Positions 1-9,684 of a DNA stretch of 64,000 bases are shown piece by piece; positions within the stretch are counted from its first letter, which is position 1; the number at the start of each line of letters is the position of its first letter. Below the pieces are notes generated by a model that saw only the letters and a list, made by a program, of their open reading frames with translations, was not told the DNA's origin and made no database searches. The position numbers were made by a program, and so were the translations under genes. This stretch comes from a virus: the IMG/VR virus record IMGVR_UViG_3300028392_000053, positions 1 through 64,000 of that record; one strand, written 5' to 3'.

Positions 1-7
1 ATGTAAG

Positions 8-202
8 ATGATTATGTTTAAAGTGATAGGAAAAGAAGAATCGTTTAAGGTTCTTACACTTGCAGAAGCAATGAATCTTGCTAAAAATATGAATGAGTTT
101 GTGACCATCCGTGGTCCTGATTTTGAAGTTGTTGGCAAATTCGGTGTGGATGTTGTGACCGATCCAAACTATGATGGTTGGATATCACGGAAAAAAGGTT
201 AA
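8..202 (+). CDS. hypothetical protein
   Basis: 64-aa ORF ending just before tRNA-Cys. Confidence 0.6.
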   Translation: MIMFKVIGKEESFKVLTLAEAMNLAKNMNEFVTIRGPDFEVVGKFGVDVVTDPNYDGWISRKKG

Positions 203-203
203 T

Positions 204-279
204 GTCGGCATGACCCGAATGGCTAGGGAACGGATTGCAACCCCGTTATATGCAGGTTCGACTCCTGTTGCCGACTCCA
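204..279 (+). tRNA. trnC: tRNA-Cys(GCA)
   Basis: Acceptor GTCGGCA/TGCCGAC, anticodon GCA, TTCGA T-loop, encoded CCA. Confidence 0.92.
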
Positions 280-357
280 CTTTTCATAAAGGTTGTTTTT
301 ATGACCTTTATGACTGGTTTTTGTTCGTAATGGCTCTTTTTAAGACCTTTATGACAG

Positions 358-418
358 TGTTGTTTTTTAACAACAACATGCAAATAGATGTTGACAAAGC
401 CGCTGGTTCTGTTATACT
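358..418 (+). promoter_or_regulatory. sigma70-type promoter with upstream TGTTG-N8-CAACA palindrome
   Basis: Palindrome 358-375, TTGACA 391-396, TATACT 413-418. Confidence 0.7.
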
Positions 419-463
419 CTATGCATAGATTGAGAAATCAATAAGTAACTGCGAAAAAGCAGA

Positions 464-524
464 TGTTGTTTTTAAGCAACAAAGCGAAAAAAGTAGTTGC
501 CAAGAAAGATAGTTGTGTTATAAT
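464..524 (+). promoter_or_regulatory. sigma70-type promoter with upstream TGTTG-N8-CAACA palindrome
   Basis: Palindrome 464-481, TTGCCA 497-502, TGnTATAAT ending 524. Confidence 0.7.
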
Positions 525-591
525 AGACACATAGCAACAAATGATTGAGTCAGTTGCAAGAAAGTTCTTTAAAAAGTTAAGTGTAATTTGT

Positions 592-666
592 GCTCCTGTC
601 GTCTACTGGCTAGGACGCTGCCCTTTCAAGGCGGAAAAGAGGGATCGAAACCCTTCAGGAGTACCA
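592..666 (+). tRNA. trnE: tRNA-Glu(TTC)
   Basis: Cloverleaf, anticodon loop CTTTCAA, CCA. Confidence 0.92.
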
Positions 667-880
667 TATTAAAATGCATTAGGTTACCAACCCAGTAGGT
701 ACCTTAGCAGAGAACTATTCCTAGTGACGGCTAGGCTCTGCTAAGACTACATGAAGCCCCCCGAAGGTGCTGGAACAAGTTGGAATGTAATGTGTTTGAC
801 AAACAAGTCCGTGGACGGCACGGTAGGGCAGGATCAAAACTGTTATTTTTGTCAAACATCCTAGTGTGTTTTAATATGGT
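663..880 (+). ncRNA. structured ncRNA closed by 21-bp stem (family B)
   Basis: 663-683 pairs with 860-880 with G-U pairs; internal TGTTTGACAAA/TTTGTCAAACA helix; no ORF. Confidence 0.65.
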
Positions 881-882
881 AG

Positions 883-1010
883 TGTCATTTGTTTTGTTGA
901 TGTAAGCCATGAGGGAAACGTCAACCTTGAGTAACTATGTACAGAAACGGTAATTGTTGCAACTGACTCCGTTGAGCATAGCAAATAGTGCGTCAACAAA
1001 ACAAATGATA
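883..1010 (+). ncRNA. structured ncRNA closed by 22-bp stem
   Basis: TGTCATTTGTTTTGTTGATGTA pairs with TGCGTCAACAAAACAAATGATA; ends 1 nt before tRNA-Lys. Confidence 0.6.
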
Positions 1011-1011
1011 T

Positions 1012-1085
1012 GGGGGTATAACTTAGTGGTAAAGTAGTAGGCTTTTAACCTATTAACCAGAGTTCAATTCTCTGTGCCCCTACCA
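1012..1085 (+). tRNA. trnK: tRNA-Lys(TTT)
   Basis: Cloverleaf, loop CTTTTAA, CCA. Confidence 0.93.
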
Positions 1086-1093
1086 AAGATTTT

Positions 1094-1159
1094 AGGATAA
1101 GTTCAGCAAACATTTATACATTTGACTTTTAATCAAAACCGTAAAAAATTATCCTGTTG
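1094..1159 (+). ncRNA. Y-RNA-like ncRNA (family A) carrying a Lys(UUU) anticodon stem-loop
   Basis: AGGATAA/TTATCCT closing stem, GTTCAGCAA motif, internal TTTGA-CTTTTAA-TCAAA. Confidence 0.75.
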
Positions 1160-1165
1160 TATTTT

Positions 1166-1241
1166 GCCCTGGTGACGGAATGGTATACGTACTGGTCTTA
1201 GAAACCAGGTTCTGAGAGTTCGAGTCTCTCCTAGGGCACCA
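1166..1241 (+). tRNA. trnL: tRNA-Leu(TAG), short variable loop
   Basis: Cloverleaf, loop CTTAGAA, 5-nt variable region, CCA. Confidence 0.9.
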
Positions 1242-1371
1242 AATCGGAAAGCAAAAACTTTCTGTTAATCCATACATTATGTGTATGGCGGGTCCAGCGG
1301 GGCATCACATGGTGTTCTTTCGGTGTCCACGTTAGAGACACGGCTAAAGTTCGTAATGCCACATATTTTTA

Positions 1372-1446
1372 GGTCTTAAAGTGTTCATGGACGCACACAT
1401 GCCTGTCACGCATGAAGAAGGGGATCGTTACCCCTTAAGACCGCCA
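1372..1446 (+). tRNA. trnD: tRNA-Asp(GTC)
   Basis: Cloverleaf, loop CTGTCAC, GCCA end. Confidence 0.9.
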
Positions 1447-1452
1447 AGATTT

Positions 1453-1526
1453 CCTCCGTTAGCTCAATGGTAGAGCAATCGGCTGATAACCGATAGACAG
1501 AAGTTCAATTCTTCTACAGAGGACCA
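1453..1526 (+). tRNA. trnI: tRNA-Ile(GAT)
   Basis: Cloverleaf, loop CTGATAA, CCA. Confidence 0.9.
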
Positions 1527-1532
1527 AGTTTT

Positions 1533-1590
1533 AGAATCCATTCAGCAAATAAAAACTTTCACTGGAAATGAAAAAAAGCGGATTCTGTTG
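1533..1590 (+). ncRNA. Y-RNA-like ncRNA (family A) carrying a Ser(GGA) anticodon stem-loop
   Basis: AGAATCC/GGATTCT closing stem, ATTCAGCAA motif, internal TTTCA-CTGGAAA-TGAAA. Confidence 0.75.
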
Positions 1591-1597
1591 TATTTTT

Positions 1598-1685
1598 GGA
1601 GCCTGTTCCCTTCAGCGGACTGTAAATCCGTTGCCTTTAATTGGAGGGTGGTTGGCGGATGGTTCGATTCCTTCAGGCTCCACCA
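1598..1685 (+). tRNA. trnY: atypical tRNA-Tyr(GTA) lacking a canonical D-arm
   Basis: Acceptor GGAGCCT/AGGCTCC-ACCA, loop CTGTAAA, T-loop TTCGATT; only ~10 nt between acceptor and anticodon stems. Confidence 0.7.
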
Positions 1686-1687
1686 GT

Positions 1688-1716
1688 TGCCAACATATAT
1701 AAAGTATGTTATAATA
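1688..1716 (+). promoter_or_regulatory. sigma70-type promoter inside tRNA array
   Basis: TTGCCA followed by TGTTATAAT just upstream of tRNA-fMet. Confidence 0.6.
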
Positions 1717-1723
1717 GTTTTAT

Positions 1724-1798
1724 CGCGGGATAGGAAAGAGGTAATCCGCTAGGTTCATACCCTAGAGATCGGTGGTTCAATTCCACCTCCCGCAACCA
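1724..1798 (+). tRNA. trnM: tRNA-fMet(CAT), initiator-like
   Basis: C1:A72 mismatch, CAT anticodon, CCA. Confidence 0.85.
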
Positions 1799-1804
1799 GT
1801 TTTC

Positions 1805-1878
1805 GCCCTATTAGTATAATGGTATTACACCTGTTTTGTAATCAGGTTACGGCAGTTCGATTCTGTCATGGGGCACCA
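1805..1878 (+). tRNA. trnT: tRNA-Thr(TGT)
   Basis: Cloverleaf, loop TTTGTAA, CCA. Confidence 0.92.
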
Positions 1879-1887
1879 AGTTTTTTT

Positions 1888-1961
1888 GCGGGGTTAGTTT
1901 AATGGTAAAACTACAGATTTCCAATCTGTTGTTGAGAGTTCGATTCTCTCACCCCGCTCCA
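1888..1961 (+). tRNA. trnG: tRNA-Gly(TCC)
   Basis: Cloverleaf, loop TTTCCAA, TCCA end. Confidence 0.93.
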
Positions 1962-1967
1962 GTTTAT

Positions 1968-2033
1968 GCAGTCGGATATTAACCGTGTTGGGGTCCACCC
2001 AATATCTACGTGGGAATCGTAGTGACTGCTCCA
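1968..2033 (+). ncRNA. 66-nt miniature tRNA-like RNA ending TCCA (Gly-like)
   Basis: GCAGTC/GACTGC acceptor-like stem, three hairpins, central loop GGTCCAC, no TTCG T-loop. Confidence 0.6.
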
Positions 2034-2038
2034 GTTTT

Positions 2039-2112
2039 CTCGGTGTGGTGAAATGGTATCATGCATGGTTTGGGACCATGTGGCGAAGGTTCGATTCCTT
2101 CTACCGAGACCA
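2039..2112 (+). tRNA. trnP: tRNA-Pro(TGG)
   Basis: Cloverleaf, loop TTTGGGA, CCA. Confidence 0.92.
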
Positions 2113-2130
2113 GTTTTATAGTTAGAATAT

Positions 2131-2206
2131 TCCGGTGAAGCAAACTAGGTGTGGGCAGAGGACTGTTAATCCTTGAAGCCAGGTTCGAATCCTGGGACCG
2201 GAGCCA
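2131..2206 (+). tRNA. trnN: tRNA-Asn(GTT)
   Basis: Cloverleaf, loop CTGTTAA, GCCA. Confidence 0.88.
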
Positions 2207-2211
2207 ATTTT

Positions 2212-2285
2212 GGGGAATTAGTATAATGGTATTACGGCAGCCTTGCAAGTTGTTCATAGGAGTTCGATTCTCCTATTCTCCACCA
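2212..2285 (+). tRNA. trnA: tRNA-Ala(TGC)
   Basis: Cloverleaf, G3:U70, loop CTTGCAA, CCA. Confidence 0.93.
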
Positions 2286-2291
2286 AATTTA

Positions 2292-2366
2292 GGTGATATG
2301 ACGTAGATGGATGCGTAACGGTTTCATAAGCCGATGAGGAAGGCTCGGTACCTTCTATCACCACCA
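2292..2366 (+). tRNA. trnM: tRNA-Met(CAT)
   Basis: Cloverleaf, loop TTCATAA, atypical T-loop CTCGGTA, CCA. Confidence 0.82.
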
Positions 2367-2380
2367 AAAGATACGAAACT

Positions 2381-2388
2381 TATAAATA
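2381..2388 (+). promoter_or_regulatory. T4-type late promoter TATAAATA
   Basis: Exact T4 gp55 consensus upstream of RBS AAGGAG and HNH ORF. Confidence 0.6.
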
Positions 2389-2411
2389 GTTCGTATACTT
2401 AAGGAGATAAC

Positions 2412-2840
2412 ATGAAAATATGTTCTTGTTGTAAAATAGAATATCCAATAGAAAAATTTGCCTTTAAAAATAAGGCATTAGATAAAAGAAATGCAATGTG
2501 TGATGATTGTAGGCAAGAGAGACAAAAACTTTCTTATTATAAACACCACGAAACGAATTTGAAAAGAATTAAACAATATAAAAAAGACAATAAAGAATGG
2601 TTTTTCGAAATGAAAAATAAACTATCTTGTTGTGTTTGTGGTGAATCGGAATCTTATTGTTTAGATTTTCACCATCTTGATGTTGCTAAAAAAGAGTTTG
2701 ATATTTCCACAAAAGTGGATGCTAGTAAAAATAAAATTTTAGAAGAAATCAATAAGTGTGCTTGTCTATGTGCAAATTGTCACAGAAAACATCACGCCGG
2801 CAAATTAAATGCGCCTTTGGTGAAACTGGATATCACATGA
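2412..2840 (+). CDS. HNH endonuclease (zinc-finger type)
   Basis: CxxC pairs, LDFHH...LCANCHRKHH; RBS AAGGAG; 3' end overlaps tRNA-Arg. Confidence 0.85.
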   Translation: MKICSCCKIEYPIEKFAFKNKALDKRNAMCDDCRQERQKLSYYKHHETNLKRIKQYKKDNKEWFFEMKNKLSCCVCGESESYCLDFHHLDVAKKEFDISTKVDASKNKILEEINKCACLCANCHRKHHAGKLNAPLVKLDIT

Positions 2841-2886
2841 GTCTACGAAATTCAGATTGGGGATTCGAATTCCTCAGGGCGCACCA
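2811..2886 (+). tRNA. trnR: tRNA-Arg(ACG)
   Basis: GCGCCTT/AGGGCGC-ACCA, loop CTACGAA. Confidence 0.9.
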
Positions 2887-2903
2887 ATTTTTAGGAGTTT
2901 TAA

Positions 2904-3038
2904 ATGGCTAATGTTAAAAAAGGCAATCTGACTGGTGCTCCACAATGGTGGAAACACCTCAAAGATTTCAAACGAGTGTTTTGGAAAACAGAACGCAAGG
3001 CTCAACAAAAAGACCTAAAAGGAAGATTGTATGAGTGA
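2904..3038 (+). CDS. small basic hypothetical protein (44 aa, MANVKKGNLTGAPQWWKHLK...)
   Basis: RBS AGGAG, overlaps start of next ORF; below ORF-track cutoff. Confidence 0.6.
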   Translation: MANVKKGNLTGAPQWWKHLKDFKRVFWKTERKAQQKDLKGRLYE

Positions 3039-3237
3039 TGGTGGAAAAGGTTCGTCACCCAGACCTTATAGTGTTTCGCAAAACGAATTCTCTAAGAATT
3101 GGGACACAATCTTTAGAAAAGATCCACGGGAAATTGAGGATCAAAAAAATGAAGATGAGGCTTTTGAAGAAATTTCACGGAGAGTCCTAGATATGCCTGG
3201 AACAATTGGTTCAGCTAAAATTGTTTTTTCCGTGTGA
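3031..3237 (+). CDS. hypothetical protein
   Basis: 68-aa ORF starting MSDGGKGSSPRP. Confidence 0.65.
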   Translation: MSDGGKGSSPRPYSVSQNEFSKNWDTIFRKDPREIEDQKNEDEAFEEISRRVLDMPGTIGSAKIVFSV

Positions 3238-3258
3238 TTCAGAAGTTAAAAATAATAT

Positions 3259-3332
3259 GTCTCGATAGTGTAATGGCAGCACTGCGGTCTCCAAAACCGT
3301 AAGTCTAGGTTCGAGTCCTAGTCGGGATGCCA
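3259..3332 (+). tRNA. trnW: tRNA-Trp(CCA)
   Basis: Cloverleaf, loop CTCCAAA, GCCA. Confidence 0.92.
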
Positions 3333-3346
3333 AATAAGGAAATGAT

Positions 3347-3838
3347 ATGAAAAATTTTGATATCCAAAAAGTAAAAGATTTTATTTTGGCTCAAGGACCA
3401 GACACACGTGTTTACCTTGGTGCAGACTCCGAACGTATGCGTGTAAACGGAGTTTGGTATGCGGATTACGCTTTGGCTGTCGTTGTTCATATCGATGGTT
3501 GTCACGGATGTAAAATCTTCGGATTTGTTGACCGTGAATTAGATTATGACCACAAGAAGTCCAAGCCTGCAATGCGTTTGATGACAGAAGTTTACAAAGT
3601 ATCCGCTCTGTTCCAAGAAATGCAGGATGTATTGGAAGACCGTCACGTTGAAGTTCACTTGGACCTTAACAAGTCAACTGAACACGGTTCTTCTTGTGTT
3701 GTTCAACAAGCAATTGGTTATATCAAAGGTACATGTAACATGACACCAATGGTTAAGCCAGATGCGCCGGCCGCTTCTTTCTGTGCAGACCGTCTAAAGC
3801 GGATTCTAGCAGAACAAGAATTGACCGAAGCCCACTAA
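3347..3838 (+). CDS. RNase H-like YkuK (DUF458) family protein
   Basis: YLGADS, RLMTEV, EVHLDLN, ASFCAD motifs. Confidence 0.75.
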   Translation: MKNFDIQKVKDFILAQGPDTRVYLGADSERMRVNGVWYADYALAVVVHIDGCHGCKIFGFVDRELDYDHKKSKPAMRLMTEVYKVSALFQEMQDVLEDRHVEVHLDLNKSTEHGSSCVVQQAIGYIKGTCNMTPMVKPDAPAASFCADRLKRILAEQELTEAH

Positions 3839-3877
3839 TCTCCTACATAAGGGTTTAACTACCCTTAGGAGATTAGT

Positions 3878-4261
3878 ATGGCTAGAAAACCAAATTTAGC
3901 AAAGACTGCGAATAGAGATACACACGTTGGTCATGGAATGGATAGAAGTCCTAAATGGCCTGGTGTTCAGAAACTACATTTGAAGTTTCATCCTGTTTGC
4001 GAATCTTGTGGTTCAACTAACAATTTGAATGTCCATCATAAGAAGCCATTCCATTTGTTTCCAGAACATGAATTGGATTTAAATAATCTAATTACACTTT
4101 GTATGGATCCATTGAAAGAGTGTCATATTAAAATTGGACATGGTGATAACTTTAAAGACTACAATCCAGAAGTAGAAACAGATGCACAAAAAGTTCGATT
4201 AGATGTTAATTTATTTGAATCGGTTGTAGCAGAAGCAAAGAAGAAACGTTTAATATCTTAA
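3878..4261 (+). CDS. HNH endonuclease
   Basis: CESCG...NVHHKKP...NLITLC...CHIKIGH. Confidence 0.8.
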   Translation: MARKPNLAKTANRDTHVGHGMDRSPKWPGVQKLHLKFHPVCESCGSTNNLNVHHKKPFHLFPEHELDLNNLITLCMDPLKECHIKIGHGDNFKDYNPEVETDAQKVRLDVNLFESVVAEAKKKRLIS

Positions 4262-4302
4262 ACACGGCTGGACCCTCTGCGAAAGTGCGGTCCAGTTCTC
4301 AT

Positions 4303-4376
4303 GCGGGTATGATGTAATGGTAGCTTATGACCTTGCCAAGGTTAATGTGAGAGTTCGATTCTCTCTACCCGCTCCA
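4303..4376 (+). tRNA. trnG: tRNA-Gly(GCC)
   Basis: Cloverleaf, loop TTGCCAA, TCCA. Confidence 0.92.
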
Positions 4377-4384
4377 GTTTTTAT

Positions 4385-4459
4385 GTGGTTGTTAGTTTAG
4401 TGGCAAAACCGCGGGTTGTGATTCCGCTATCACGGGTTCGATTCCCGTACATCCACCCA
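4385..4459 (+). tRNA. trnH: tRNA-His(GTG)
   Basis: G-1:C73, loop TTGTGAT, CCA. Confidence 0.92.
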
Positions 4460-4478
4460 ATTTTATTAAGGATATTTT

Positions 4479-4718
4479 ATGACGTATGTTCCATTGAATC
4501 GTAATGTAATTGTTGAACGAAAAGCACCAGAGAAAGTTTCTGCTGGTGGTATCATTCTTCAATCTTCACTTGAACCAGACCGTGCAACTGTTGTTGCTAC
4601 CTCTGACGAATCCCTTTCAATTGGTGAAGAACTATTGATTAATTGGAACAAAGCATATAAGATTGAAAATGAAACATATCGTATTCACATTGATGATGTG
4701 ATTGCAGTATTTGAATAA
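4479..4718 (+). CDS. groES: GroES-like co-chaperonin
   Basis: PLNRNVIVER...SAGGIIL mobile loop...DDVIAV. Confidence 0.85.
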   Translation: MTYVPLNRNVIVERKAPEKVSAGGIILQSSLEPDRATVVATSDESLSIGEELLINWNKAYKIENETYRIHIDDVIAVFE

Positions 4719-4793
4719 GCCTTGTTAACTCAGCGGTAGAGTGCCCTCCTTACAAGTGGGAAGCCGGCGGTTCGATCCCGTCACAAGGTACCA
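4719..4793 (+). tRNA. trnV: tRNA-Val(TAC)
   Basis: Cloverleaf, loop CTTACAA, CCA. Confidence 0.92.
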
Positions 4794-4796
4794 AGT

Positions 4797-4975
4797 TTTG
4801 TAAGTGTAGATGTAGTGAAAGTAAGGCGTCGAAAACCTTATGAGGCAACGGTTCGAGTCCGGCAACATGGCAACGGCTAAGTAACTACTATTACTACGTA
4901 CCTCTATCCTGTCCGCGGCTTTAAAGAAAATACAGGTAGAATGGTTTCGATGAGTGAGGTGGAACTACTTACAAA
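4797..4975 (+). ncRNA. putative structured ncRNA (~180 nt)
   Basis: TTTGTAAGT/ACTTACAAA closing stem, internal hairpins, T-loop-like CGGTTCGAGTCCG, no ORF. Confidence 0.5.
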
Positions 4976-5028
4976 TTCAATTTCTCCATAACACACGGAG
5001 TATAATAGGATAAGTTGTGTGTTAATTT

Positions 5029-5102
5029 GCTTTTATCGTACAGTGACAGTACACGCCCTTGGTACGGGCGAAACCCAAGTTTGATTCTTGGTAGAAGCAC
5101 CA
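5029..5102 (+). tRNA. trnT: tRNA-Thr(GGT)
   Basis: Cloverleaf, loop TTGGTAC, CCA. Confidence 0.87.
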
Positions 5103-5106
5103 ATTT

Positions 5107-5182
5107 GCGTCTTTAGCTGATATGGTTATAGCACCGGTTTGAAGCACCGAGGAAAGTGGTTCGATTCCACTAGGACGCACCA
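5107..5182 (+). tRNA. trnF: tRNA-Phe(GAA)
   Basis: Cloverleaf, loop TTGAAGC, CCA. Confidence 0.9.
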
Positions 5183-5305
5183 TATTGAAACATATTCATC
5201 ATTGGTTGGGAGCCTGTAGCGGATGGCATCCGGGACTACTCAACGAAACAGCATTAGCCAGCGTGATGAAAAGCCTCTTGACGGCGAGAGTATGTTTCAA
5301 TATGG
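5180..5305 (+). ncRNA. structured ncRNA closed by 18-bp stem (family B)
   Basis: CCATATTGAAACATATTC pairs with GAGTATGTTTCAATATGG. Confidence 0.65.
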
Positions 5306-5378
5306 GTTGTAAACTTAAGTGGTGAAGTAACCGGCTCTTAACCGGAAGAACAGAGTTCGATTCTCTGACAGCCCACCA
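5304..5378 (+). tRNA. trnK: tRNA-Lys(CTT)
   Basis: Cloverleaf, loop CTCTTAA, CCA. Confidence 0.92.
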
Positions 5379-5383
5379 AATTT

Positions 5384-5510
5384 GGAGATGTGATGTAATG
5401 GTAGCATAGCATAGCAAAAAAATTATCCTGTAAAGGATAAGTTCTGCAACAACTACGCTCTAACTCTGTAAAAGTTCTTGTGTGCGGTTCGAATCCCACC
5501 ATCTCCACCA
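5384..5510 (+). ncRNA. chimeric tRNA / family A RNA (circularly permuted, CCA-ended)
   Basis: Acceptor GGAGATG/CATCTCC-ACCA with D- and T-arms; insert TTATCCT-GTAA-AGGATAA-GTTCTGCAA plus AACT-CTGTAAA-AGTT hairpin. Confidence 0.75.
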
Positions 5511-5517
5511 ATTTTAT

Positions 5518-5593
5518 GCCCCGATGACGGAATGGTATACGTGCTTGATTCAAAATCAAGATTCTGTGGGTTCGAGTCCCACTTGGGGTACCA
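5518..5593 (+). tRNA. trnL: tRNA-Leu(CAA), short variable loop
   Basis: Cloverleaf, loop TTCAAAA, CCA. Confidence 0.9.
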
Positions 5594-5594
5594 T

Positions 5595-5683
5595 GGAAGA
5601 TGCAGTAAGATGGTTCTTACACCTGCTTGGAAAGCAGGCCACTGGCTTTGCCGGTGGGGGTTCAATTCCTCCTTCTTCCACCA
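5595..5683 (+). tRNA. trnS: tRNA-Ser(GGA)
   Basis: Long variable arm, loop TTGGAAA, CCA. Confidence 0.9.
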
Positions 5684-5684
5684 T

Positions 5685-5759
5685 GTCTCTGTAGTTCAAC
5701 GGATAGAATACATTCCTCCTAAGAATGGGATACAGGCTCGATTCCTGTCGGAGACACCA
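5685..5759 (+). tRNA. trnR: tRNA-Arg(CCT)
   Basis: Cloverleaf, loop CTCCTAA, CCA. Confidence 0.9.
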
Positions 5760-5820
5760 TGTTGTTTTTAGGTAACAATGCAAGAAAAGTCTTGCCAAAT
5801 TACACTTAACGTGATATAAT
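5760..5820 (+). promoter_or_regulatory. promoter for Y-like RNA + DUF2828 unit
   Basis: TGTTG-N8-TAACA 5760-5777, TTGCCA 5792-5797, 17-nt spacer, TATAAT 5815-5820. Confidence 0.75.
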
Positions 5821-5848
5821 CTTTATATGGAGATTATATAAGTTTTTT

Positions 5849-6060
5849 AGGATGGATTCAGCAATTATAAACTTAATTGACTAAAGACCCGTTACTACAG
5901 GAGGACCACCGCAAGGTGTAATTACGTAACTAGGGAATCAACCTGAATTAAATTTGACGCTGGAAAAGACAGCAAAGATGATGGTAGTCCATTAGGGTTT
6001 GAGTGGTTCAATTGCACTCCGGTTAGAGTAAACCGAAAATTACAGAACGACCATCCTGTT
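5849..6060 (+). ncRNA. long Y-RNA-like ncRNA (family A)
   Basis: AGGATGG/CCATCCT stem, ATTCAGCAA motif, multi-hairpin interior with T-arm-like GAGTGGTTCAATTGCACTC. Confidence 0.72.
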
Positions 6061-6079
6061 ATTTTATTTTGAGAGTTTT

Positions 6080-6188
6080 AGAGTAGGTTCAGCAAAACAA
6101 AACTAGCTGGTTCGATTCCAGCATTATCCACCCAAACTCGAAAGAGACTCGGATCATGTGCCATGGTGGCAATCAAACTACTCTGTTG
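6080..6188 (+). ncRNA. YrlA-like Y RNA (family A)
   Basis: AGAGTAG/CTACTCT stem, GTTCAGCAA, T-arm GCTGG-TTCGATT-CCAGC preceding a D-like hairpin. Confidence 0.78.
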
Positions 6189-6193
6189 TTTTT

Positions 6194-6314
6194 AGGTTAA
6201 GTTCCGCAAAACAAATTAATGCAAATGGAAACTGAAAGGCCGGTTCGATTCCGGGTTCCCTTAGAGGATAAAGTGTAATGGTTGCACATCGGATGCTAAA
6301 AGTTTAACCTGTTG
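6194..6314 (+). ncRNA. YrlA-like Y RNA (family A)
   Basis: AGGTTAA/TTAACCT stem, GTTCCGCAA, T-arm CCGG-TTCGATT-CCGG then D-arm GTGTAATGGTTGCAC. Confidence 0.8.
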
Positions 6315-6332
6315 ATTGAAAAGGAGTTCATT

Positions 6333-7754
6333 ATGTCAACATTTGTCGAAGCCGTTATGAATCAAGAAGCCCGTACCGAAAACGGTATGAAGGCTCGCAA
6401 GTCTACCGCCAATGCGGTGGTTGATTTGTTTTACAATGCGGGTGCATCCCGTGGAAAAGATATTAAGCCTGCATTTGCGGCTGCCTTGGCAGAGAACCGT
6501 GAATTGGCTCTCCGTGTTGCCGCATGGCTACGTGATGCACGTGGTGGTGCTGGTGAACGTCAACTGTTCCGTGATATCCTAGTGTATCTGGAAAAGACTG
6601 ATACGGAAGCCGCTAAGGCTCTGTTGGCTAAGGTGCCTGAATTGGGACGTTGGGATGACTTGTTCATCTTCAAGACCAAGGTTTTGAAAGAAGCCGCATA
6701 TACCTTGCTTGGCAACGCTTTGCGTGAAAAGAATGGTTTGGCGGCTAAGTGGTCTCCTCGCCAAGGTCCAATTGCGGCAGAAATCCGTACATTCTTCGGA
6801 ATGTCACCAAAGTTCTACCGCAAGTCTTTGGTTGAAATGACCAAGGTTGTTGAAACAAATATGTGTGCAAAGGACTGGGATTCCATTAACTTTTCACATG
6901 TTCCTTCCGTAGCGGCTGCCCGTTACAAGAAGGCCTTTAATCGTAACACCCAAACATATGCAACTTATGTTGCGGCTTTGGTAAAGGGTGACAACCCTGA
7001 AGTTAAGGTTAACGCATCTGTGGCATTCCCATATGATGTGCTGAAGGGTCGTATCTCCAACTATGGAGTTTCATTCAACAAGACCGAATTGGACTTGATT
7101 GAAGCACAATGGAATGCATTGCCTAACTATGTTGGGGATGCTAACATTCTGCCTCTAGTTGACGTATCTGGTTCTATGACCTGCACCGCAGGCAAGACCG
7201 GTAAGTTGACCTGTTTGGAAGTTGCAGTCTCTTTGGGATTGTACCTTGCTGACAAGAACAAGGGTGCGTTCAAGGACACATTCTTGACCTTCTCTGGCAA
7301 GCCAGAATTGATGCACCTAAAAGGTGGTATCAACTCTAAGATTGACCAAATGGTTAAGTCCAACTGGGATATGAACACTGACCTGAACAAGGCCTTTGCG
7401 AAAATCCTAGACGTTGCTGTAAAAGGTAACGTAGCACAAGAAGATATGCCAGGAATGGTGTTGATTCTGTCTGACATGCAATTTGACGCTTGCGTTAAGC
7501 ATGATGACTCTGCAATCGAAATGATTGCACGTAAGTACGAAGCCGCAGGATACACTTTACCAAAGGTTGTATTCTGGAACTTGAACGCCTCATATGGTAA
7601 CTCACCTGTGAAGTTTGACAAGTCTGGTACTGCACTGGTGTCTGGTTTCTCTCCAGCCGTGGTTAAGCCACTCCTTGCTGGTGACCTAGAAACCTTCACA
7701 CCAGAATCTGTGATGCTTAAGACCATCATGGATGACCGTTACAAAGTGCTGTAA
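6333..7754 (+). CDS. DUF2828-type helical + vWA protein, Ro60/TROVE-like putative RNA-binding protein
   Basis: RTENG, LRDARGGAGER, GRWDDL, LAAKW, MIDAS DVSGS, ILSDMQFD, VFWNL, LVSGFS; RBS AAGGAG before ATG 6333. Confidence 0.8.
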   Translation: MSTFVEAVMNQEARTENGMKARKSTANAVVDLFYNAGASRGKDIKPAFAAALAENRELALRVAAWLRDARGGAGERQLFRDILVYLEKTDTEAAKALLAKVPELGRWDDLFIFKTKVLKEAAYTLLGNALREKNGLAAKWSPRQGPIAAEIRTFFGMSPKFYRKSLVEMTKVVETNMCAKDWDSINFSHVPSVAAARYKKAFNRNTQTYATYVAALVKGDNPEVKVNASVAFPYDVLKGRISNYGVSFNKTELDLIEAQWNALPNYVGDANILPLVDVSGSMTCTAGKTGKLTCLEVAVSLGLYLADKNKGAFKDTFLTFSGKPELMHLKGGINSKIDQMVKSNWDMNTDLNKAFAKILDVAVKGNVAQEDMPGMVLILSDMQFDACVKHDDSAIEMIARKYEAAGYTLPKVVFWNLNASYGNSPVKFDKSGTALVSGFSPAVVKPLLAGDLETFTPESVMLKTIMDDRYKVL

Positions 7755-7774
7755 CGCAGTGGGCACCGAAAGGT

Positions 7775-7860
7775 GTCCATTTTGAAATACATTACTGAAG
7801 TTGGTTCAGTCAGACAGGGATATCCAATTGCCTATGTCGTTAGTGTGTTTCAAAATGGAC
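7775..7860 (+). ncRNA. structured ncRNA closed by 20-bp stem (family B)
   Basis: GTCCATTTTGAAATACATTA pairs with TAGTGTGTTTCAAAATGGAC. Confidence 0.62.
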
Positions 7861-7862
7861 AT

Positions 7863-7940
7863 GCGGATGTAGCCGAATTTGGTATAGGCAATGGACTTAA
7901 AATCCATAATCTGAGGGTTCGAGTCCCTCTATCCGCACCA
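7863..7940 (+). tRNA. trnL: tRNA-Leu(TAA), short variable loop
   Basis: Cloverleaf, loop CTTAAAA, CCA. Confidence 0.9.
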
Positions 7941-7943
7941 AAT

Positions 7944-8018
7944 GCTCCGATAGCTTAATGGTAAAGCAGTGAACTCATAATTCATTGAGTCTAGGTTCAA
8001 TTCCTAGTCGGAGCACCA
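7944..8018 (+). tRNA. tRNA(CAT), Met or Ile2
   Basis: Cloverleaf, loop CTCATAA, CCA; third CAT tRNA in the array. Confidence 0.85.
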
Positions 8019-8039
8019 ATGTTTTGGATATATAAGGCC

Positions 8040-8474
8040 ATGAAAAAGCTAATTCCTATTCAATCTCTGGACCATCCACTTGCAGGTCACCTAAAAGACG
8101 ATCCAATTCGTCCAGAAATTCCTCATGAAATGAGAGTTGGTATTAACTGTGAGGTACTAGCACTCCAGTTAGAAGAAATTTTAGGTGCAATGGTATGCGT
8201 CAAATACCATGATTCAATTCCATCAAGCGTAGATGAATTGCTAGAGACCGCAAAGAATCCTTCAGTTGCTGTATTTTACACAATATGGAGTTATGCCGCA
8301 GGCGCAGGCAGAGATTTACTCCTTGAAGCCAGAAAATACATTGAGGGTAATAATCCAAACATAAAAGAGTTTGTGACTTATAGCCCAAAAACTGAAATGG
8401 CCAAACGTTTTCATTTAAAAAACGGTGCGTCCATTTACAGAGAAAATCTCGATTCAGTAAACTACAAATATTGA
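8040..8474 (+). CDS. hypothetical protein (possible GNAT-like fold)
   Basis: FYTIWSY..GAGR.LL and A.RFH.KNGA motifs. Confidence 0.6.
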   Translation: MKKLIPIQSLDHPLAGHLKDDPIRPEIPHEMRVGINCEVLALQLEEILGAMVCVKYHDSIPSSVDELLETAKNPSVAVFYTIWSYAAGAGRDLLLEARKYIEGNNPNIKEFVTYSPKTEMAKRFHLKNGASIYRENLDSVNYKY

Positions 8475-8553
8475 TTCCCACTTTGCCGGTTTGATAAATA
8501 GTTGTGTTGGTGTGAAACCAACCACAATTTTGTCAACACCCTAAAGGAAAAAA

Positions 8554-9684
8554 ATGTTCAAAAAGATGCCTTTTATGGTACTTTTTGTCATGTCTACATC
8601 AATTTCCGTTGCTCAGACAACGTATGATTCGAAAACTCTGGTAGATACAAACAGTACCTCTACCAGCACAAGTACCGTTAATACCAATAACGTAAACTCT
8701 GGAACAATTACAAACATCAATAATACTGATGTTAAAAGTATTTCCACGAACAACAATAACAACGTTAACGCAAGTACGTCTACCAGTGTAAACACGAATA
8801 ACAACGTAAACTCTGGCTCTATGACCTACACGAATAACAACGTAAACTCTGGTACGTTGACCAACAATAACAATAACGTCAACGCCAGCACAAACACAAA
8901 CATCAATAGTGGAACAATGACATACAACAATGTCAACTCTGGTTCCATGACAAACACCAATAATAACTCAAACGTTAGTACAAACACTAACAATAACGTT
9001 AACACTGGTGATATGACTAATCGAAACATCAACACATCCACTGCGGCTTCAACCTCAACAAACGTAAACACGAACAACAACATAAACTCCGGTACAATGA
9101 CAAACAACAATGTCAATACTGGTGATATGACTAATCGTAACATCAATACGTCTACAGCCGCTACGGATAACAAAAATACAAACGTCAACACCTCAACTAA
9201 CGTTAATCAAAATGTACAGACTGGTGATATGACTAATCGTAACATCAATGAAACAACCATTACACAAAAAGTAATACAACCTCCACCAACAGCAGTTGCT
9301 CCAACAATGATGAGTGGTGGTAATGCAGATTTATGTTCTACTGGTACATCAGGTTCCGTGCAAACACAAATCTTCGGCGTTTCTTCTGGTGGCACTGTTA
9401 GAGATATGAATTGTGAACGTTTAAAATTGTCTAAGACTCTTTACGATATGGGAATGAAAGTGGCTGCCGTTGCAACCATGTGTCAAGACCGTAGGGTATT
9501 TGATGCTATGTTGGCTGCCGGCACACCATGTCCTTATGAAGGCAAAATTGGTGAACAAGCTAAACAACTATGGGAAGATAATCCCGGAAAGCTACCAGTA
9601 ATGGAAGAGGTTAAATCTGATGACACGTATAAGAAAATTGGCATTGGTGCTTTGCTCGGCGCTATTGTCTTTAAACTATTCTAA
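8554..9684 (+). CDS. secreted Asn/Thr-repeat protein with Cys-containing C-terminal domain and membrane anchor
   Basis: Signal peptide, NNNVNSG/TGDMTNRNIN repeats, C-terminal hydrophobic segment. Confidence 0.8.
   Translation: MFKKMPFMVLFVMSTSISVAQTTYDSKTLVDTNSTSTSTSTVNTNNVNSGTITNINNTDVKSISTNNNNNVNASTSTSVNTNNNVNSGSMTYTNNNVNSGTLTNNNNNVNASTNTNINSGTMTYNNVNSGSMTNTNNNSNVSTNTNNNVNTGDMTNRNINTSTAASTSTNVNTNNNINSGTMTNNNVNTGDMTNRNINTSTAATDNKNTNVNTSTNVNQNVQTGDMTNRNINETTITQKVIQPPPTAVAPTMMSGGNADLCSTGTSGSVQTQIFGVSSGGTVRDMNCERLKLSKTLYDMGMKVAAVATMCQDRRVFDAMLAAGTPCPYEGKIGEQAKQLWEDNPGKLPVMEEVKSDDTYKKIGIGALLGAIVFKLF

Follow-up and report, generated by a model that had tools for sequence, protein, structure and literature searches.

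How can a gene that carries a tyrosine anticodon, and stands among the tRNA genes of a phage, encode a tRNA when it has no room for a D-arm? The question is raised by positions 1598-1685 of the viral record IMGVR_UViG_3300028392_000053. The record has 84,531 bases and is judged to be about half complete; the stretch analyzed here, which we call the window, is its first 64 kb (64,000 nucleotides). The window contains a T4-type replication module (family B polymerase, UvsX, gp41-like helicase, RNase H, NrdAB and ThyX), and its polymerase is ~50% identical to cyanomyovirus polymerases. It also contains a tRNA array at 204-8018, in which ARAGORN called 26 genes. None of the 26 is a tyrosine tRNA, nothing was called at 1598-1685, and ARAGORN called no tyrosine tRNA anywhere in the record. 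An earlier reading made from the letters alone (the sequence-only reading) had described 1598-1685 as the only tRNA-Tyr in the window; this agrees with our results, since the locus carries GTA and ARAGORN has no other tyrosine tRNA in the window or the record.

The locus in its array

We compared the locus with known RNA families and phage genomes. The best Rfam match at 1598-1685 was tRNA-Sec (RF01852), with 33.6 bits, which is under the gathering score of 47. The general tRNA family (RF00005) did not reach its gathering score there and gave no row; the other 25 tRNAs of the window listed under RF00005 scored 34.8-75 bits. A blastn search with the 88 bases against GenBank phages, at E values up to 1e-3, produced no match, and megablast of window positions 1-9000 against GenBank phages yielded a sole match of tRNA-Asp size, in one phage under two accessions. 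No phage TyrRS or tRNA-repair gene was found nearby among 35 ORFs searched with Pfam or 8 ORFs searched with PHROGs. Four RNA-library runs were compared with the locus as assembled contigs, which hold no information on ends, strand or transcription. One contig from one run spanned 1533-1717, where DNA carry-over is possible, and the three other runs gave almost no cover at the gene. The 71-base spacer upstream (1527-1597) matched Dicty Class I RNA at 34.5 bits against 41.5, which is probably a chance match.

Several other elements of the array and the record were recorded along the way. The sequence-only reading had placed a second Tyr-type RNA at 5384. The 127-base RNA at 5384-5510 has an acceptor stem, a D arm, a T arm and CCA, with an insertion of ~50 bases in the place of the anticodon arm; it matched tmRNA at 17.8 bits against a threshold of 47 and is 86-100% identical in relatives, with a variable inner segment. 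Two of five distinct relatives (L057 and L071) have GAC in place of the hairpin-loop GTA, and the tyrosine assignment was not upheld for this RNA. Elsewhere in the same viral record (G000:C1:77946-78313), ARAGORN identified a permuted two-piece tmRNA with the tag ANDSQFALAA. All three tRNA-Leu genes, at 1166-1241, 5518-5593 and 7863-7940, are only 76-78 nt long with a 5-nt variable loop; a long variable arm is expected in bacterial tRNA-Leu. Similar tRNA-Leu genes of 78-79 nt, with a like D loop, occur in the planctomycete arrays described below. The tRNA-Ser(gga) at 5595-5683 scored 45.2 bits on the tRNA-Sec model, just under the threshold, and ARAGORN placed a mismatch at its seventh acceptor pair. 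Possibly it belongs to the 8/4 tRNA-Ser that the available parts of Mukai et al. describe in phages (PMC5389517). A 480-aa protein is encoded inside the array at 6312-7754 and conserved in 77 related loci; it matches DUF2828, DUF7788 and PHROG 850 ('RNA-binding protein'). We rejected the possibility that it is Ro60-like, as these were its sole matches. The tRNAs Leu-taa and Met just after it (7863-8018) gave a joint match to YrlA (Y-RNA-like) of 24.8 bits against 69.

Anatomy of the gene and its pseudoknot

When the acceptor stem is counted as seven base pairs (1598-1604/1675-1681), just ten bases (1605-1614) are left before the anticodon stem, and the absence of a D-arm noted in the sequence-only reading was thus borne out. 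No local D hairpin was found in this interval; its 9-10 nt pair with the loop of the variable arm instead. The gene is 85-88 nt long (85 nt plus CCA), the same as a full class II tRNA-Tyr, and its variable region of 26 bases contains GGAGGG.

All features lie on the plus strand. The 8-nt 5' strand of the acceptor stem (1598-1605) pairs with 1674-1681, and all eight pairs change on both sides among 70 distinct homologues. The eighth pair (pair 8-83) is GC in 59, AU in 7, UA in 2 and UG in 1 of the 70. Position 8 adds a further pair to the acceptor stem, with the base that precedes the seven-pair 3' strand as its partner, which makes the fold 8/4 and not 7/5. A two-base connector, TT (1606-1607; T in 63/70 and 65/70 distinct sequences), is followed by CCCTTC (1608-1613), which stands in place of a D-stem strand. 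This strand is complementary, with one G-U pair, to the GGAGGG at 1643-1648, and TGGTT comes next at 1649-1653, as had been noticed from the letters; we refer to the CCCTTC/GGAGGG pairing as helix X. The base at 1614 is a junction base, like position 26, and can pair with 1632 (standard in 68/70) or with 1642 (62/70).

The anticodon arm (1615-1631) consists of a 5-bp stem (1615-1619/1627-1631) and the 7-nt loop CTGTAAA (1620-1626), with the anticodon GTA at 1622-1624. G34, U35, A36 and A37 were each present in 70/70 distinct sequences and U33 in 68/70. The 5' strand of the variable-arm stem (T, then GCC; 1632-1635) pairs with its 3' strand (GGC, then G; 1654-1657). Three segments occupy the loop between them: an A/T-rich linker (1636-1642), which is 7 or 8 nt long in 66/70 distinct sequences; the 3' strand of helix X (1643-1648); and the TGGTT segment (1649-1653), a possible stand-in for the G18 G19 of the D loop, with TGG in 68/70. 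Helix X and the variable-arm 3' strand are separated by 4 or 5 nt in 68/70. The T arm (1659-1673) has a 4-position stem (1659-1662/1670-1673), with a T-T mismatch at one of the four positions in the window copy, and the loop TTCGATT. Across the family, the two inner T-stem pairs are paired in 70/70, the outermost position is mostly U-U in phages and G-C in planctomycetes, and the loop is TTCGATT or TTCAATT in 67/70. The gene ends with the acceptor 3' strand (1674-1681), the discriminator A73 and an encoded CCA (1682-1685). A73 was found in 70/70 sequences and CCA in 66/67 distinct viral sequences.

Relatives were gathered through the neighboring DUF2828/DUF7788 protein (77 loci), and further viral contigs through the anticodon arm. 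Four loci on separate contigs (L032, L012, L008 and L163) hold copies with 100% identity to the D-armless gene of the window, and fourteen others hold diverged copies at 83-99%, four of them at 95-99% and others at 83-87%. The pattern used on viral contigs held just three elements constant: the anticodon loop, a portion of the variable-arm 5' strand and a portion of the GGAGGG strand. No search pattern contained the 5' strand of helix X or the strand that closes the variable-arm stem on its 3' side. The scan returned 89 stretches. Among 70 distinct 92-nt strings, 64 passed a test of the T loop and acceptor; all 64 have 8/8 acceptor pairs and 63 have an encoded CCA. The six strings left out were L203, L242, L248, L266, L271 and L278. 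The L248 copy (3979-4064) scored 68.4 bits with the covariance model R1; in its acceptor stem just four of the eight 5' bases find a partner in the 3' strand. It looks like a copy with a damaged 3' acceptor strand and may have arisen by recombination or be decaying.

We also searched without regard to the anticodon. A pattern from the 3' half alone returned 79 stretches, and an anticodon-blind detector gave 67 distinct sequences in 178 loci among the viral loci examined. The anticodon is GTA in all 67, and A73 is likewise present in 67, CCA in 66 and G1-C72 in 66; no anticodon other than GTA was found by the 3'-half pattern and the detector. ARAGORN called none of 100 copies of the gene. The results confirm that 1598-1685 is a conserved gene and neither a deletion remnant nor an assembly error.

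The pairing of helix X was evaluated in two alignments. The first (A2) is a MAFFT alignment of 66 sequences, 58 of them distinct, and was not fitted to any structure; its helix columns (11-16/48-53) are paired in 100% of cells, and three pairs vary on both sides. RNAalifold, run without a given structure, predicted the 8-bp acceptor stem, helix X (with one additional pair) and the anticodon stem. The second (A3) was made with R1 from 78 matches, 70 of them distinct, and includes the divergent phage copies L050 and L016 and nine cellular copies. It is fitted to the nested structure of R1 and so biased toward it; the variable-arm stem is not part of R1. In A3, the share of paired cells was 98.9% for the acceptor stem (compensatory changes in 8/8 pairs), 99.8% for helix X (5/6), 100% for the anticodon stem (5/5), 98.6% for the variable-arm stem (3/4) and 79% for the T stem (3/4), where most phage copies lower the value with a U-U at the outermost position. 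None of 500 shuffles of A3 equaled the observed values in any of the five helix measures, and pairing fell to 38-58% when the 3' partners were slid by 1-3 columns. The sequence-only reading had named covariation of 1608-1613 with GGAGGG in homologues as its check, and the 99.8% of standard pairs with compensatory changes at five of six positions in 70 distinct sequences came out in its favor. With copies on many separate viral contigs and this covariation, the CCCTTC/GGAGGG complementarity is far beyond chance.

Compensatory changes in the variable-arm stem come from few sequences: GCC/GGC becomes GGC/GCC in L050 and L016, ACC/GGT in L026 and L227, and GCA/TGC in L352. L351 has CGGC/GCCG misaligned by one column, and it was hence scored as broken. 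The stem (1633-1635/1654-1656) is thus kept, covaries and encloses the 3' strand of helix X, in agreement with the earlier suggestion of a pseudoknotted D-arm substitute. Since the 3' strand of helix X lies within the loop that the variable-arm stem closes, the two helices constitute a pseudoknot. These data show that helix X and the variable-arm stem are both under selection for pairing.

We considered single-sequence folding as a guide to the structure and set it aside. For the window copy, minimum free energy (MFE) folding gave another structure (-34.1 kcal/mol, compared to -25.1 for the nested part of the proposed fold), and helix X appears in the MFE fold of just 27/70 family members; as the window copy folds unrelatedly, we took these folds to have no bearing on the conserved structure. 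Helix X could stack on the anticodon stem, as the D stem normally does, given that 1608-1613 runs straight into it. In a normal tRNA the D loop, with its G18 G19, comes after the 5' strand of the D stem; similarly, TGG comes after the 3' strand of helix X in the D-armless gene. This hints that TGG might substitute for the GG of the D loop and contact the T loop at the elbow. L171 and L050, seemingly one lineage, have AAG instead of TGG, and both have altered T loops.

The tyrosine slot in phage and planctomycete arrays

R1 gave nine matches of at least 65.6 bits over the 77 related loci, and all others were at most 30.2 bits. The weak matches in relatives (23-30 bits) were rejected as ordinary tRNAs, being canonical tRNA-Tyr where coordinates were comparable and Ser(gct) in three that were checked. 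The order Asp(gtc), Ile(gat), Tyr contains the D-armless form in the window, L003, L008, L012, L013, L016 and L032, and a canonical tRNA-Tyr in L004, L006, L011 and L021. The order Lys(ttt), Tyr, Asp(gtc), Asn likewise contains the D-armless form in L026 and the canonical form in L043 and L044. Phages whose neighboring protein is 93-96% identical differ in the form that they carry. Among viral loci with at least 15 ARAGORN tRNAs, 53 had only the D-armless form, 29 only the canonical form, 10 neither and none both, some contigs being counted twice. After identical 200-nt contexts were merged, there were 77 D-armless and 102 canonical contexts, and again no locus with both. Our results show that the D-armless gene fills the canonical tRNA-Tyr slot in phage arrays and never stands beside a canonical one in the loci examined. 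Of the evidence on function, this placement is the strongest.

The sequence-only reading had treated a normal D-arm in relatives as a sign of simple deletion or assembly error. Close relatives do possess a canonical tRNA-Tyr in the same slot, and that part of the expectation stood. The consequence drawn from it did not: the canonical genes are unrelated in sequence to the D-armless gene, which indicates that one gene was swapped for the other and not that a D-arm was deleted, and the D-armless reading is not refuted.

We applied the same pattern to one genome per prokaryotic species and obtained 59 stretches. Four are true members, in records labeled Planctomycetota, Tepidisphaerales or Pirellulaceae (the latter two within that phylum), and R1 matched all four of these genomes. 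R1 also produced matches of at least 65 bits in 6/151 sampled Planctomycetota genomes, and it matched 8/23 genomes of one family. The five weaker matches among the 151 genomes (27-31 bits) consisted of four canonical tRNA-Tyr and one degenerate look-alike, the 31.4-bit match in G102 (L353), which was not counted as a member. The pseudoknotted design is not confined to phages.

Cellular copies stand in small arrays of irregular tRNAs with short tRNA-Leu lacking a long variable arm, 8/4 tRNA-Ser and tRNA-Cys. Two short Leu, the D-armless Tyr, an 8/4-looking Ser and Cys are found at 9693-10325 of L384 (G001:C1:1158000-1176000) and at 9033-9608 of L385 (G154). The array site in two near-complete genomes is between topA and an ATP-grasp gene, ~5 kb upstream of a Thr-Tyr-Gly-Thr-tuf operon. 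A pattern search of G001 and G154 located a canonical tRNA-Tyr within this operon, and the D-armless gene is therefore an extra copy in these two genomes. The D-armless Tyr of both G154 and G065 carries C33, an uncommon base for an elongator tRNA at that position.

Comparison with known tRNAs and possible function

The D-armless gene has in common with canonical class II tRNA-Tyr(GUA) the anticodon arm, the variable-arm stem, the T loop, A73, G1-C72, the length and the slot in the array; many canonical phage tRNA-Tyr have a 17-nt anticodon arm identical to that of the D-armless gene. It differs from them by the lack of a D hairpin, by the 8/4 arrangement in place of 7/5, and by a variable-arm loop of ~18 nt instead of ~4 nt, half of which is paired to the 5' region. 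With tRNA-Sec (RF01852) it shares an eight-bp acceptor stem, a six-bp helix in the D position and a long variable arm, but the anticodon is GUA, not UCA, and the match reaches 33.6 bits against 47. A closed D hairpin and a 5-bp T stem are present in tRNA-Sec.

Animal mitochondrial D-armless tRNAs such as tRNA-Ser(AGY) also have no D hairpin, and a short segment finds partners elsewhere in the molecule; as described in the parts of the papers available to us, they are truncated and belong to reduced organelle systems with adapted partner proteins (PMC4013460, PMC7609411). In contrast, the gene described here belongs to phages and free-living bacteria, is full length and has a six-bp Watson-Crick replacement helix within a pseudoknot. 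A precedent is given by the 8/4 tRNA-Ser, 8/4 tRNA-His and allo-tRNAs of Mukai et al. (PMC5389517, available in part), of which the 8/4 tRNA-Ser and tRNA-His occur in phages. In common with our gene, those tRNAs have a branch of 8 + 4 positions and a long variable arm, belong to phage or irregular clusters, and were first seen as sub-threshold matches to tRNA-Sec (PMC5389517). The 8/4 tRNAs and allo-tRNAs keep a D stem-loop, with a long stem and a tetraloop, whereas the D-armless tRNA-Tyr is without one and draws its helix from the variable-arm loop (PMC5389517). We found no tyrosine member and no pseudoknot in the available main text of Mukai et al. (PMC5389517), where 'Tyr' is confined to the reference list. 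DNAVirus_1423 of the partly available PMC10690425, which is said to overlap tRNA-Tyr calls, was rejected as another family, being 66 nt long with five soil sequences. Our search of the full-text literature, including two supplements covered incompletely, found no published description of such a pseudoknotted tRNA. The gene is a real and conserved form of tRNA-Tyr gene with a new structure, and it probably has a role in translation.

On the evidence of its position, sequence and conservation, it is likely that 1598-1685 encodes a working phage tyrosine tRNA (GUA) with a rebuilt, non-canonical core. In such a tRNA the 12-position acceptor/T branch would be split 8 + 4, helix X would continue into the anticodon stem, and the core would be a pseudoknot. 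The RNA would presumably be cotranscribed with the rest of the array, then processed and used for decoding on the ribosome; the host TyrRS would charge it through A73, G1-C72 and U35, and the TGG past helix X may touch the T loop and so produce the elbow. Tyrosine identity depends on A73, U35 and, in bacteria, G1-C72, according to the available part of PMC9976931, and the identity set of GUA, A73 and G1-C72 is kept in the D-armless gene. EF-Tu reads the acceptor/T branch, and 8/4 and 9/3 tRNAs function in E. coli translation (PMC5389517). The slot in the array, the kept identity elements, the invariant anticodon loop, the 12-position branch and the precedent of EF-Tu and 8/4 tRNAs make a working tRNA-Tyr the most likely reading. 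We counted against it the weak T stem, the rejection by ARAGORN and Rfam, the differing MFE fold, the planctomycete coexistence with canonical tRNA-Tyr, the C33 of two cellular copies and the small number of sequences behind the covariation of the variable-arm stem. The same study, in the parts available, found several irregular allo-tRNAs inactive in translation; some were charged but unused, and two were toxic (PMC5389517).

Some of these points would fit a tRNA-like decoy or regulator whose tyrosine identity marks serve to bind or absorb a recognizing factor, such as a defense nuclease, TyrRS or a modification enzyme, and which delivers no tyrosine on the ribosome. In the planctomycetes G001 and G154 the gene is accompanied by a canonical tRNA-Tyr, and two cellular copies have C33; both points keep this explanation alive. 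The weak T stem, the frequent inactivity of the allo-tRNAs tested by Mukai et al., with two of them toxic (PMC5389517), and the known targeting of tRNA-Tyr by Septu and retron-Eco7 (PMC13096335, as available) also speak for it. We nevertheless consider a decoy unlikely: the gene is the sole tyrosine gene of otherwise near-complete phage arrays, in the canonical slot, with no canonical one alongside in any of 77 contexts, and a decoy would have no need for the invariant G34, U35, A36 and A37 (70/70), the 12-position branch and the encoded CCA together.

The pseudoknot itself could be questioned, in that helix X and a plain variable-arm hairpin might form in turn, for example around processing or protein binding. 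The short stretch between helix X and the 3' side of the variable-arm stem (4 or 5 nt in 68/70), the ambiguous single-sequence folds and the two possible partners of position 1614 are consistent with such switching, but both helices are paired in nearly all sequences and the 7-8-nt linker on the other side gives room for both simultaneously; we regard switching as quite improbable. A decaying tRNA-Tyr pseudogene formed by D-arm deletion, or an assembly error, with complementarity by chance, would explain the canonical, normally D-armed tRNA-Tyr of close relatives and the rejection of 1598-1685 by tRNA finders. This explanation we take as refuted by the occurrence of the gene in 77 distinct viral contexts and in cellular genomes, by 100% identical copies on separate contigs, by compensatory changes in every helix with none of 500 shuffles as good, by the unrelated sequences of the canonical genes of relatives, and by a length (85-88 nt) equal to a full class II tRNA-Tyr, from which nothing is simply missing.

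The proposed tRNA-Tyr may also bear on phage defense. Septu cleaves tRNA-Tyr within its variable arm; a similar cut has been reported for retron-Eco7, which the tRNA-Tyr of T5 reportedly resists through a distinctive variable loop (available portions of PMC13096335 and PMC11555353). As two defense systems cut the variable arm of tRNA-Tyr, a tRNA whose variable loop is locked in a helix is a candidate escape form, and we speculate that the rebuilt variable arm protects against host nucleases that cut there. A broader proposal, which we offer tentatively and hold to be possible but doubtful, is that the gene represents a second, unrecognized build of working elongator tRNA, with a pseudoknotted core and one strand of the 'D' helix drawn from the variable-arm loop. 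This build would have spread with irregular arrays among freshwater T4-like phages and Planctomycetota, and was maybe kept because, with its variable arm buried, it escapes nucleases of the Septu or retron-Eco7 PtuAB type, whose cut falls in precisely this arm.

To our knowledge, the cloverleaf is treated as universal outside animal mitochondria. If the proposed reading is true, the D-armless tRNA-Tyr would be a naturally occurring exception in phages and free-living bacteria and would reveal how far the synthetase, EF-Tu, RNase P and the ribosome depend on the standard tRNA core. It may also provide a natural scaffold for orthogonal tRNA design. With ARAGORN calling none of the 100 copies, phage tRNA arrays that seemingly have no tyrosine tRNA may be complete.
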